Shown: positions 41,169 through 43,813 of the stretch, piece after piece
Numbering within the stretch: the first letter of the stretch is position 1
How the letters are laid out: each line of letters begins with the position of its first letter
DNA from: a phage
Direction: 5' to 3' (one strand)
Sequence record: PZ386948.1
DNA length: 64,000 nucleotides
The notes under the pieces: generated by a model
The model's input: only the letters and a program-made list of their open reading frames with translations
What the model was told of the DNA's origin: nothing
Database searches by the model: none
Program-made: the position numbers and the translations under genes

Positions 41169-41204
41169 CTTATTTCCTGTTTTAATTCGTGGTTTTAATA
41201 TACT

Positions 41205-41232
41205 TATTTATACTAAAAAGCCCCAACCTTTC
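41205..41232 (-). terminator. intrinsic terminator, copy 2 of repeated hairpin
   Basis: Identical 28-nt sequence to 40660-40687. Confidence 0.6.
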
Positions 41233-41251
41233 GGTCGGGGCTAAGCCTTGC

Positions 41252-41550
41252 GGCAACCTTGTCGGGGTTCCACCTGCTAAGGCAAGTGTTTGTACGAAAC
41301 GCCGGGATTCGAACCCGGTTATTAAGCAGTTGACGCTACTCAATATTTTTAAAAGGCCATATCTCGACCATATCCGAACGTTCCGTCAAAAACGCTACTC
41401 GGCTTACGGCAAAGATATTTCCTCGAATCGATAATTCGGTGCGCCGTTTCTGCTGTGATGTAAGAGGGCATCAATAAACGCAAAGATTATTAACGCAATT
41501 CCTTACTCAGGGAACATCAGTCCGACGACTTACCGGTAGCGACCCGGTTT
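41252..41550 (-). ncRNA. candidate structured small RNA
   Basis: ~300 nt without ORF; minus-strand perfect T-arm-like hairpin CCGGGUUCGAAUCCCGG; intrinsic terminator at 41205-41232. Confidence 0.35.
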
Positions 41551-41551
41551 C

Positions 41552-41902
41552 TTAATATTCTTTTAAAGCATCAATCTGTTTACGGCGTTCACGCCATAAA
41601 TCAATTGCTTCATACGCGGATTCAACATTTCGAATTGGACGGCATTTATATAAAGATTTGTGATTTTGATATTGCGTAGATAACGGAATTTTATCTAAAA
41701 GGTCTTTACGTTCAAAGTATTCGTAACCATCTAAGCCAAATGAACGATTTTTGAGAAATTGCCAATGACCAAATTCGTTTTGAATATAAATATAATCCGC
41801 ATGTTGATAAAGTAAATTAATTTCACGAAATGAGATATGTTTTTCATATTCATTGAAGTAAAATGTTAAATCATGAACTACTAAATAAACATTACCTTTC
41901 AT
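41552..41902 (-). CDS. hypothetical protein
   Basis: 116 aa ORF adjacent to tRNA-Arg. Confidence 0.45.
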   Translation of the reverse strand: MKGNVYLVVHDLTFYFNEYEKHISFREINLLYQHADYIYIQNEFGHWQFLKNRSFGLDGYEYFERKDLLDKIPLSTQYQNHKSLYKCRPIRNVESAYEAIDLWRERRKQIDALKEY

Positions 41903-41920: not shown

Positions 41921-41996
41921 TGGTCGAGGCAGTAGGGATCGAACCTACGACCTAGGACTTAGAAGGTCCTTGCTCTTCCTTCTGAGCTATGCCCCG
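41921..41996 (-). tRNA. tRNA-Arg (anticodon UCU)
   Basis: Minus-strand cloverleaf read by eye: anticodon arm AGGAC-CUUCUAA-GUCCU, T-arm GUAGG-UUCGAUC-CCUAC, encoded CCA. Confidence 0.8.
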
Positions 41997-42000
41997 TAAT

Positions 42001-42087
42001 TGGGGTGACCGATGGGAGTCGAACCACCCGAGTCGCAATGACAATGGATTTACAGTCCACACCGCTACCTCTACGGGATAACTCCCC
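42001..42087 (-). other. tRNA-like element, non-canonical (possible degenerate tRNA or small stable RNA)
   Basis: Has GGUUCGA T-loop-like motif, anticodon-like arm with GUA in loop and 3' CCA, but acceptor and T stems do not pair canonically by eye. Confidence 0.3.
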
Positions 42088-42100
42088 TTAATTCTTAATT

Positions 42101-42175
42101 TGGTGGCCCTGGGTGGAATTGAACCACCATCTGGCGATTATGAGTCGCTTGCTTGAACCTTCCAGCTACAGGGCC
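42101..42175 (-). tRNA. tRNA with CAU anticodon (Ile2-type or Met)
   Basis: Acceptor GGCCCUG/CAGGGCC, anticodon loop CUCAUAA, T-loop UUCAAUU, CCA encoded. Confidence 0.8.
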
Positions 42176-42353: not shown

Positions 42354-43004
42354 TTATATATTGTTAATTTGATTTAGAATTCTTTTTGCTTGAGTATGAC
42401 TTACGCCAATATGCTTAGCATATTTAGACAATTCGCCACGTTTAGAAAAATCATATAATTTAGAAATTTCTATTCTTCTTTTTCTTTCATCCGCAGAAAC
42501 TTTTGCTTCGTTTGCTTTTGCTATTTTACGTTTAGCTTCTTGAGAATGAGTTTTACCAGCAAAGCCATTCTTCATTAATCCATTTGAAGACCATCCTTTT
42601 AATTTTCCGTTAGAATGTGCCTTTTTAACACCCAATGAAATTAATTCGCGTTGCTGATCTGTCATAGGATAATTATTTATATGATCCCATCCACCTTCAC
42701 CTCCAAGTTTTAAATTATACACATCTGGTCTATTTAAAAACTCTTCTGTGACAATATTTTTCTCGGCTTCAAGCATAGATTCTTTATCGTCAAAATACTC
42801 TAATATTTCTTTAGAAAAATTTTCTATACCATATTTATCTTGGGCTCTTTTTAATAATTTACCAGAACCCATATATCCATCATCTAAATTTTCGGTAGAA
42901 TGCACACCAATATAAATTTTATTATTAATTTTATTTGTTATTTTATAAAGATAAAAATGCATATCAGTCCCTAATAAAGAACTGAGCGTCTCACGACGAG
43001 TCAT
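42354..43004 (-). CDS. GIY-YIG homing endonuclease (SegB-like)
   Basis: 216 aa; GIY-YIG core YLYKITNKINNKIYIGV; C-terminal HTH-like tail; embedded between tRNA-Ser and tRNA-Gly. Confidence 0.75.
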   Translation of the reverse strand: MTRRETLSSLLGTDMHFYLYKITNKINNKIYIGVHSTENLDDGYMGSGKLLKRAQDKYGIENFSKEILEYFDDKESMLEAEKNIVTEEFLNRPDVYNLKLGGEGGWDHINNYPMTDQQRELISLGVKKAHSNGKLKGWSSNGLMKNGFAGKTHSQEAKRKIAKANEAKVSADERKRRIEISKLYDFSKRGELSKYAKHIGVSHTQAKRILNQINNI

Positions 43005-43008
43005 AAAT

Positions 43009-43082
<74 letters not shown>

Positions 43083-43087
43083 AAATT

Positions 43088-43174
43088 TGGTGCGAGAAGT
43101 GGGACTCGAACCCACAAGGAAATCATTCCGCAGCATTTTAAGTGCTGTGCCTTTACCAATTTGACCATTCTCGC
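43088..43174 (-). tRNA. tRNA-Leu (anticodon UAA)
   Basis: 87 nt type-II tRNA; reverse complement matches remembered T4 tRNA-Leu (GCGAGAAUGGUCAAAUUGG...). Confidence 0.9.
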
Positions 43175-43180
43175 GCTATA

Positions 43181-43813
43181 TTATTTATTACGTGAAAAAG
43201 ACTGTTCTATCAATTCTGGACACTTTCGTTCTATCCATTTTCTAGCTTTTTGTGGGCTTATACCTATTATTTTAGCAGCTTTACTAACCCATCCAAATTT
43301 AGAATAATCGATTTTAACTAATTCTTCGTAAATTTCATCAGTTAAAATCTTTTCATTAATATTTACCAGTAAATGATATAATTTATTATCATTAGCAATT
43401 TTAATGAATCTTTTATAGTTTCCGCCTTTACTTAAACCTAATGAAGTAATTGCAGATGATATAGTAGCCGAATTTAATAGTGCGTTTAAAATTTCTTCAT
43501 CACTAACATTATAACGCTTTTTATTATTTTTAATATTTTTACCAGCAAAAGTATCAGTTTGCGAATGGCAGTTTGGACATAATAATCTTAAATTTGATTT
43601 AAGATGATTTTTGTTATTTCCATCAATATGGTCTAATTGCAGAACAATATGCTTATTTTGCCATTTTGAAATTTTACAAATTGCACACTCATATGGAAAA
43701 ATATTTTCTTTTATTATTTTGTCTTTCAGCTTTCCTGTACTAAAATTTGGATGTTTTCCTTCAAAAATTTCAGCTAATTTAGTATCCATAATATGATTCC
43801 CAATTATTAACAA
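43181..43813 (-). CDS. HNH homing endonuclease with zinc-finger and C-terminal HTH-like tail
   Basis: 210 aa; CAIC...HIDGNNKNH...NLRLLCPNCH; abuts tRNA-Leu. Confidence 0.7.
   Translation of the reverse strand: MLIIGNHIMDTKLAEIFEGKHPNFSTGKLKDKIIKENIFPYECAICKISKWQNKHIVLQLDHIDGNNKNHLKSNLRLLCPNCHSQTDTFAGKNIKNNKKRYNVSDEEILNALLNSATISSAITSLGLSKGGNYKRFIKIANDNKLYHLLVNINEKILTDEIYEELVKIDYSKFGWVSKAAKIIGISPQKARKWIERKCPELIEQSFSRNK

Follow-up and report, generated by a model that had tools for sequence, protein, structure and literature searches.

An unannotated 87-nt element in the tRNA operon of Shigella phage CM8 as a probable tRNA-Tyr::tRNA-His hybrid pseudogene

What kind of gene ends in CCA, carries a tRNA-like T loop and anticodon arm, and still does not pair the acceptor and T stems of a tRNA? 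This question is raised by an element of 87 nt that lies on the minus strand (42087-42001) of a 64,000-nt stretch of phage DNA (sequence record PZ386948.1), which was analyzed as a whole and is called the window below. The window matches Shigella phage CM8 (MK962750 / NC_054939; Straboviridae, Tequatrovirus) with 100% identity, and the CM8 record carries no annotation for the element, whose sequence is GGGGAGTTATCCCGTAGAGGTAGCGGTGTGGACTGTAAATCCATTGTCATTGCGACTCGGGTGGTTCGACTCCCATCGGTCACCCCA. A preliminary description of this DNA had placed the element at 42001-42087, between tRNA(CAU) and tRNA-Arg, and this placement is correct, with tRNA(CAU) at 42175-42101 and tRNA-Arg(TCT) at 41996-41921. Also present as described are the terminal CCA and the GGTTCGA T-loop motif of the minus strand, and the arm GTGGA-CTGTAAA-TCCAT with GTA at the anticodon position; the element has a long variable arm as well. 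Several identities had been offered for it, including a decayed tRNA, an unusual tRNA, a small stable RNA, and the remnant of a homing-endonuclease target.

The element is carried by a T4-type tRNA operon on the minus strand. In order of descending coordinates, the operon contains an HNH-endonuclease ORF (43181-43789, with the ORF extending to 43813; weak Pfam HNH match, E = 0.005), followed by tRNA-Leu (43174-43088) and tRNA-Gly (43082-43009), a SegB-like GIY-YIG endonuclease gene (42354-42962, with a longer ORF to 43004; Pfam GIY-YIG, E = 6.3e-6), and then tRNA-Ser (42347-42258) and tRNA-Thr (42252-42177). The intact tRNA(CAU) (42101..42175) is the upstream neighbor of the element (42001..42087), and the intact tRNA-Arg(UCU) (41921..41996) is its downstream neighbor. 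Beyond tRNA-Arg, the operon goes on with an ORF of 116 aa, homologs of the T4 stable RNAs rnaD and rnaC, and a terminator-like hairpin. All six flanking tRNAs, both neighbors included, are called by ARAGORN, and the same six are matched in Rfam at the gathering threshold with scores of 59-73 bits. The tRNA(CAU) would be assigned to Met by its anticodon, but in T4, RB51, and Ozark it carries the annotation Ile2. CM8 keeps six tRNA genes versus 10 in phage AR1.

Some additional features of this region are worth recording in their own right. The HNH-type ORF sits at the position of tRNA-Gln, with identity to AR1 resuming about 2 bases before tRNA-Leu, and no tRNA-Gln remnant was found when one was sought under the HNH gene. 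Phage Ozark carries an ORF of the same length (609 nt) at this position and likewise has no Gln gene. On the plus strand, ORFs at 43008-43307 (99 aa) and 41189-41434 (81 aa) run antisense through the tRNA-Gly/Leu and rnaC regions, respectively. One of these antisense ORFs encodes the peptide RDSNP, a reverse reading of the T-loop box, and the two ORFs are almost certainly not genes. Between tRNA-Arg and the homolog of T4 rnaD is a minus-strand ORF of 116 aa (41552-41902) that has no Pfam match. The stop codon of this ORF lies directly against the rnaD homolog on its 5' side, and T4 has no ORF at this place.

Intact relatives supply the most valuable clues to the identity of the element. In AR1, the order of genes is Ile/Met(CAU) - Tyr(GUA, 87 nt) - Asn(GUU) - 113-nt spacer - His(GUG) - Arg(UCU), and Ozark and A2 have the same layout. 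Other relatives differ, with Tyr - Asn - Arg in RB51, Tyr - segB - Arg in T6, and Ile - segB - Arg in T4. The CM8 element begins exactly where tRNA-Tyr starts in AR1 and is equal to it in length (87 nt), and the spacer that separates it from tRNA-Arg is the same 4-nt ATTA as between His and Arg in AR1.

Three- and four-way alignments reveal that the element is a mosaic of two tRNA genes. Nucleotides 1-73 are 100% identical to AR1 tRNA-Tyr(GUA), nucleotides 63-87 (the last 25 nt) are 100% identical to the 3' end of AR1 tRNA-His(GUG), and the two portions overlap in the 11-nt T-loop box GGTTCGACTCC. Because 73 of the 87 nt match a genuine phage tRNA-Tyr and the last 25 nt match a tRNA-His, the similarity to tRNA is not a matter of chance. 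The Tyr-only part (nt 1-62; 42026..42087, minus strand) is identical to L002:1814-1875 of the AR1 locus and spans the 5' strand of the acceptor stem, the D arm, the anticodon arm (GUA), the long variable arm, and the 5' strand of the T stem. The alleles of T6, RB51, and phage IME339 depart from it at a single polymorphic position. Next is the 11-nt crossover box (nt 63-73; 42015..42025, minus strand), which is common to the T arms of Tyr and His. The His-only part (nt 74-87; 42001..42014, minus strand) is identical to L002:2155-2168 and comprises the 3' strands of the T and acceptor stems, the discriminator C, and CCA, after which it runs on into the His-Arg spacer ATTA and then into tRNA-Arg. 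The discriminator is of the His type, versus A in Tyr, and the Tyr::His junction is spanned by ...GGGTGGTTCGACTCCCATCGG....

The same box marks the two end-points of a deletion. Within the 3.8-kb AR1 locus, GGTTCGACTCC has exactly two copies, one starting at L002:1876 (Tyr) and the other at L002:2144 (His), and it shares the rank of longest exact direct repeat in the cluster. In AR1, the surroundings of the Tyr and His copies agree over exactly 11 nt, with not one base more on either side. When the 268 bp between the boxes are removed from AR1 in silico, the product matches CM8 exactly over +-150 nt around the junction, and removal of 269 bp from Ozark likewise yields CM8 exactly over +-60 nt. 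These exact matches identify the element as a Tyr::His fusion that resulted from one deletion. The locus has each feature that a hybrid gene should show, namely collinear 5' and 3' parts, a junction in common sequence, the absence of the intervening genes, and collinear flanks. Nothing was found that contradicts the reading of the element as a hybrid formed by deletion.

We therefore assign a probability of about 95% to the conclusion that the element is a non-functional Tyr::His hybrid gene, or pseudogene, left by a 268-bp deletion. An ancestor of CM8 carried ...Ile(CAU) - Tyr - Asn - 113-nt spacer - His - Arg(UCU), as many Tequatroviruses do. A deletion of 268 bp with both end-points inside GGTTCGACTCC then joined the first 73 nt of Tyr to the last 14 nt of His. 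Lost with it were the 3' end of Tyr, the entire tRNA-Asn gene, the spacer, and 51 nt from the start of tRNA-His. The suggestion that this is a decayed tRNA was thus right as to decay, but the route was a clean fusion of two genes by deletion rather than point mutation.

The distribution of the junction bears on whether this allele is real. Phage records were searched with a 39-nt query centered on the junction, using an E-value limit that neither parent half could reach alone. The junction is present in four of 50,697 phage records, which represent only two phages, CM8 and vB_EcoM_IME339 (each with a GenBank and a RefSeq entry). In several hundred phage records, both halves are present and lie ~270 bp apart. 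Repeated tRNA boxes can in principle mislead assemblers, and the junction in the CM8 record might then have arisen as an error of assembly or sequencing, with the real phage retaining intact Tyr-Asn-His. However, sequencing reads are much longer than the 11-bp repeat, and the flanks are perfectly collinear with those of intact relatives. IME339 (MH051915) was sequenced in a different laboratory and shows the same junction in a different cluster background, which has Gln and Pro but no seg or HNH gene. This independent record makes an artefact very unlikely, to the point of being nearly negligible.

The IME339 copy differs from the CM8 element in three places: nt 41 (C/T), an A-to-C change in the His tail, and an extra C in that tail. 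The four intact flanking tRNAs show no differences between the two phages. This pattern fits relaxed constraint on a dead gene, or else a homopolymer sequencing error. The polymorphism at nt 41 also exists among intact Tyr genes, with T in T6 and RB51 and C in AR1, and the different nt 41 alleles in CM8 and IME339 hint at recurrent deletion or at later recombination. SNPs in the flanking sequence favor neither one shared origin nor two separate deletions. In both phage records, the host is given as E. coli BL21 or BL21(DE3), which may be a coincidence or may reflect a relaxed need for the lost tRNAs on that host.

Metagenomic collections offered few opportunities to encounter the hybrid. The junction is absent from IMG/VR (two patterns) and from JGI metagenome contigs, which are collections with few T4-type clusters. 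For example, the intact 3' end of Tyr is present in 72 IMG/VR contigs, only two of which have a T4-type cluster. Most of the 72 contigs that carry this exact 36-nt tRNA-Tyr 3' end have non-T4 arrangements, such as Asn-Tyr-Thr...Ser, Arg-Tyr-Thr, or large clusters of many tRNAs, and on the strength of this sequence match one tRNA-Tyr allele seems to be common to unrelated phages. In about 10 of the 72 contigs, ARAGORN makes no tRNA call over the tRNA-Tyr match.

Why does the hybrid fail as a tRNA? The preliminary description had been unable to pair a canonical acceptor or T stem, and the comparison with tRNA-Tyr bears this out, since in its register only 3/7 acceptor and 3/5 T-stem pairs are standard. 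The standard pairs of the acceptor are G-C, G-C, and G-U, and the remaining positions juxtapose G.A, A.G, G.G, and U.C. The T loop TTCGACT is present above its 3/5 closing stem, and the D arm and the anticodon arm (GUGGA/UCCAU with the 7-nt loop CUGUAAA) are identical to those of AR1 tRNA-Tyr. Neither helix forms because the 5' acceptor and T-stem strands of Tyr now face the 3' strands of His. Over the entire cloverleaf, the CM8 hybrid in the Tyr register has 17/24 standard pairs and an energy of +0.3 kcal/mol. The corresponding values are 23/24 pairs and -24.2 kcal/mol for AR1 tRNA-Tyr, and 21/21 pairs and -23.0 kcal/mol for AR1 tRNA-His.

Search programs draw the same distinction. ARAGORN makes no call on the 87-nt element, and the element is absent from the Rfam matches at the gathering threshold. 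Both parent genes in AR1 are called by ARAGORN and score 30.2 bits (Tyr) and 65.1 bits (His) in Rfam. A covariance-model search had been proposed as a check, and in permissive mode the tRNA family RF00005 gives the element 22.7 bits versus a threshold of 29, in an alignment that is off by two bases and leaves out the T arm. Permissive searches with the other Rfam families returned chance-level matches to unrelated families. Because its cloverleaf cannot form, the element has no support as an unusual tRNA.

The intact tRNA-Tyr of AR1 (L002:1814-1900), with 30.2 bits, is itself barely above the Rfam threshold of 29. Its variable arm is long, and its D stem contains a C.C mismatch. For tRNA-Tyr, tRNAscan-SE predictions are noted in the records of AR1 and RB51, and in some records the phage tRNA-Tyr is labelled tRNA-OTHER or tRNA-Val.

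RNase P, the CCA-adding enzyme, and aminoacyl-tRNA synthetases read the stacked acceptor/T helix. Because these enzymes need this helix, we infer that the hybrid is not matured. The hybrid is co-transcribed within the tRNA operon, but would be no substrate for RNase P, for CCA-adding or modifying enzymes, or for a synthetase. Judging from the lost base-pairing, it would probably be freed as spacer RNA during the processing of the Ile and Arg tRNAs and then degraded.

If the element is not a tRNA, it could still have been a structured RNA of another kind. Its minimum free energy fold (-29.2 kcal/mol) is not better than those of shuffled sequences (z = -0.67), since equal or better folds are obtained for 52 of 200 shuffles. 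A novel structured RNA was dropped as a candidate on this basis. The proposal of a small stable RNA is likewise not supported, both because the structure is at chance level and because the small RNAs of this operon, rnaD and rnaC, are found elsewhere, at 41552-41293. Homology of the element to these T4 RNAs was considered and rejected. The true homologs, both on the minus strand, are downstream: that of rnaD (T4 species 2) at 41552-41438, with 115 identical bases over ~116 nt aligned, and that of rnaC (T4 species 1) at 41431-41293, with 137/139 nt identical. After the rnaC homolog there is a strong terminator-like hairpin (41242-41219, minus strand) followed by a T run. At the gathering threshold, Rfam has no match over the rnaD and rnaC homologs or the adjoining hairpin. 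A T-loop-like box, GGTTCGAATCC, is present in the rnaC homolog.

Given that its D, anticodon, and variable arms are identical to those of a functional phage tRNA-Tyr, and that it lies inside a transcribed operon and ends in a 3' CCA, the element might nevertheless be a functional unusual tRNA or tRNA-like RNA. For example, it could serve as a decoy for defence nucleases that cleave tRNA-Tyr. However, neither the acceptor stem (3/7) nor the T stem (3/5) can form, the predicted fold does not surpass those of shuffles, ARAGORN gives no call, and the Rfam score is below threshold. Moreover, the IME339 copy has two changes in its 14-nt tail and none in the four flanking tRNAs, and the hybrid is a rare allele, found in two phages versus several hundred records with intact genes. 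A functional RNA is consequently a highly improbable explanation, and a non-functional hybrid remains the reading that we favor.

The deletion cost CM8 three tRNAs: Tyr, Asn, and His. Colicin E5 cleaves the Tyr, His, Asn, and Asp tRNAs, all of which share UQU in the anticodon loop (PMC1635277). The tRNA-Tyr is a target of Septu Ec-B88 (PMC13096335), and is also targeted by Retron-Eco7 (PMC12673091). In T6, a tRNA-Tyr that is one polymorphic base apart from nt 1-73 of the element weakens Septu immunity, whereas T4, which has no Tyr gene, cannot escape (PMC13096335). By analogy with T6 and T4, CM8 and IME339 are predicted to be more sensitive than their intact relatives to such tRNA-targeting defences.

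How did the deletion arise? The idea of a homing-endonuclease target remnant gains some meaning from the properties of SegB, which recognizes 27 bp with an essential 5' core, GGTTCRANTCC (Brok-Volchanskaya 2008, PMC2330249). Cleavage falls immediately behind CCAR, where the tRNA ends on its 3' side, and many tRNA genes are cut weakly; SegB prefers the tRNA-Asn gene of T2L, RB1, and RB3, and the nucleotides tied to this preference are G6, A16, G18, A26, and A27 (PMC2330249). In sequence, the AR1 tRNA-Asn carries 5/5 of these preferred nucleotides, and it lies between the repeats, at distances of ~95 nt (Tyr box) and ~165 nt (His box). The crossover box GGTTCGACTCC at 42025-42015 also fits the SegB core. 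In the hybrid, as in His, the site is GGTTCGACTCCCATCGGTCACCCCAATTA, where CCAA at positions 23-26 agrees with the CCAR of SegB sites. This site does not have the full set of preferred nucleotides, since G6 and A26 are present but positions 16, 18, and 27 are G, T, and T. The remnant proposal is a sensible lead, in that the box fits the SegB core and the deleted Asn gene is the preferred target. The link to SegB is circumstantial, because the crossover box is simply a conserved T-loop box.

In a scheme based on these properties, a SegB-type endonuclease would make a double-strand break at the 3' end of tRNA-Asn, between the repeats. The ends would be resected, and the two 11-nt boxes annealed by single-strand annealing or microhomology-mediated repair with the T4-type recombination machinery. 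A break in Asn followed by annealing would yield the exact CM8 allele and at the same time remove the preferred SegB site. There is a relevant precedent in T6, where SegB cuts inside tRNA genes (Chihara 2026, PMC13096335) and drives amplification of the tRNA-Tyr/segB segment, with microhomology at the junction and dependence on UvsX/UvsY (PMC13096335). Both this precedent and the nature of the deleted gene, a preferred SegB target with all five preferred nucleotides in AR1, favor a SegB break as the origin of the deletion. Mild support comes from the absence of other hybrids, in that Gln/Leu, the 9-nt Asn/Arg repeat, and the reciprocal His::Tyr combination left no natural examples; the corresponding Gln::Leu, Asn::Arg, and reciprocal His::Tyr junctions, constructed in silico, have no match in the 50,697 phage records.

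Several observations argue in the other direction. The T loop is the most conserved stretch of a tRNA, so the microhomology would coincide with the SegB core either way. The coincidence of box and core is therefore not independent evidence, as the T loop is conserved whether or not SegB acted. T4 forms deletions between short direct repeats without a site-specific nuclease, which also weakens the case for a SegB break. In addition, AR1 carries the same seg gene as CM8 yet keeps Tyr-Asn-His, and IME339 has no seg gene in its cluster. The C-terminal, presumably DNA-binding half of the CM8 Seg protein also differs from those of T4 and T6 SegB.

This protein is encoded at the position occupied by tRNA-Pro in IME339, Ozark, and T4, and the same gene is annotated as segD in AR1. 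Over the N-terminal 117 aa, 97/117 residues (83%) are identical to T4 SegB, whereas the C-terminal half is unrelated. Likewise, the catalytic N-terminal domain is close to that of T6 SegB, and the C-terminal half differs. By analogy with I-TevI, the C-terminal half may be taken as the DNA-binding part, and the protein looks like a domain swap that probably has altered target specificity. Located inside the tRNA cluster, this SegB-like gene could have supplied the break.

The same hybrid could have formed with no endonuclease at all, through replication slippage or unequal crossing-over between the 11-bp T-loop repeats. The setting would be replicating or co-infecting phage genomes, and the event a spontaneous illegitimate recombination like those of classical T4 deletions. 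This route accords with the presence of an 11-bp exact direct repeat, joint-longest in the cluster, at both end-points, and with the laboratory T4 hybrid tRNA genes that McClain and Foss reportedly described in 1984 (Cell 38:225-231). The different DNA-binding half of the CM8 Seg protein, the lack of a seg gene in the IME339 cluster, and the retention of the genes in AR1 despite its seg gene all speak for it as well. On the other hand, an equally long and much closer repeat in Gln/Leu (85 bp apart) left no natural hybrid in the phage collection, although CM8 and Ozark do without Gln. The reciprocal junction His::Tyr, expected of a duplication, was not found in that collection either, and the sole hybrid observed brackets the preferred SegB site, although the numbers are tiny and this is only suggestive. 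We give slippage or unequal crossing-over a little under an even chance, and the odds of a SegB-type break versus plain slippage are about even. The two routes lead to the same product and can be regarded as about equally likely.

A further possibility is that the hybrid or the deletion brought some benefit. The hybrid might have been kept as a decoy for tRNA-Tyr nucleases such as Septu and Retron-Eco7, or the deletion might have been selected because it eliminated the preferred SegB site; taken together, these proposals are improbable. If the decoy were real, the transcript would still offer the tRNA-Tyr anticodon and variable arms to defence nucleases. If the deletion were selected, the phage would resist marker exclusion by segB-carrying competitors, and the occurrence of one junction on different Tyr alleles in CM8 and IME339 would point to a hot spot where an endonuclease drives such deletions repeatedly.

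The findings matter mostly for annotation, with some novelty only in the possibility that the deletion was endonuclease-driven, selected, or recurrent. The proper label for the 87 nt is a tRNA-Tyr/tRNA-His fusion pseudogene, and CM8 should be counted as a phage without tRNA-Tyr, tRNA-Asn, and tRNA-His. The locus also provides a natural case in which a tRNA cluster that is rich in T-loop repeats and visited by homing endonucleases loses genes, besides gaining them.

Comparison with known systems places the element more precisely. T4 rnaC and rnaD are non-tRNA RNAs of the same operon and hence the most natural "small stable RNA" to expect there. Their CM8 homologs are ~97-99% identical to T4, whereas the 87-nt element is a different sequence, and it is neither of these RNAs because tRNA-Tyr and tRNA-His account for it from end to end. 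The SegB system resembles the CM8 locus in that the crossover box fits the SegB core and the deleted segment holds the preferred SegB target. It differs in that the resident seg gene of CM8 has another DNA-binding half, and in that the published outcomes of SegB action are homing (gene conversion) and tandem amplification, whereas CM8 has a deletion hybrid for which SegB would be only a presumed agent.

The T-even tRNA-Tyr(GUA) genes of AR1, RB51, and T6 share with the element its position after tRNA(CAU) and its first 73 nt, which are identical in AR1 and carry one polymorphic difference in T6 and RB51. In the element, however, the last 14 nt are from tRNA-His, neither the acceptor stem nor the T stem survives, and the result is not accepted by any tRNA model. 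There is also a likeness to the hybrid tRNA genes of T4, a kind of decay that was reportedly first seen in the 1980s, when McClain and Foss (1984) are said to have characterized laboratory hybrids made by deletion between tRNA genes. Those hybrids belong to the same genus and the same tRNA cluster as the CM8 element, and they too unite a 5' part with a downstream 3' part through a short common sequence, with loss of the intervening DNA. They were laboratory isolates, whereas the CM8/IME339 hybrid occurs naturally in two wild isolates and is built from Tyr and His, neither of which T4 has. The 87-nt element is thus a natural, newly recognized example of an already known kind of tRNA gene decay.
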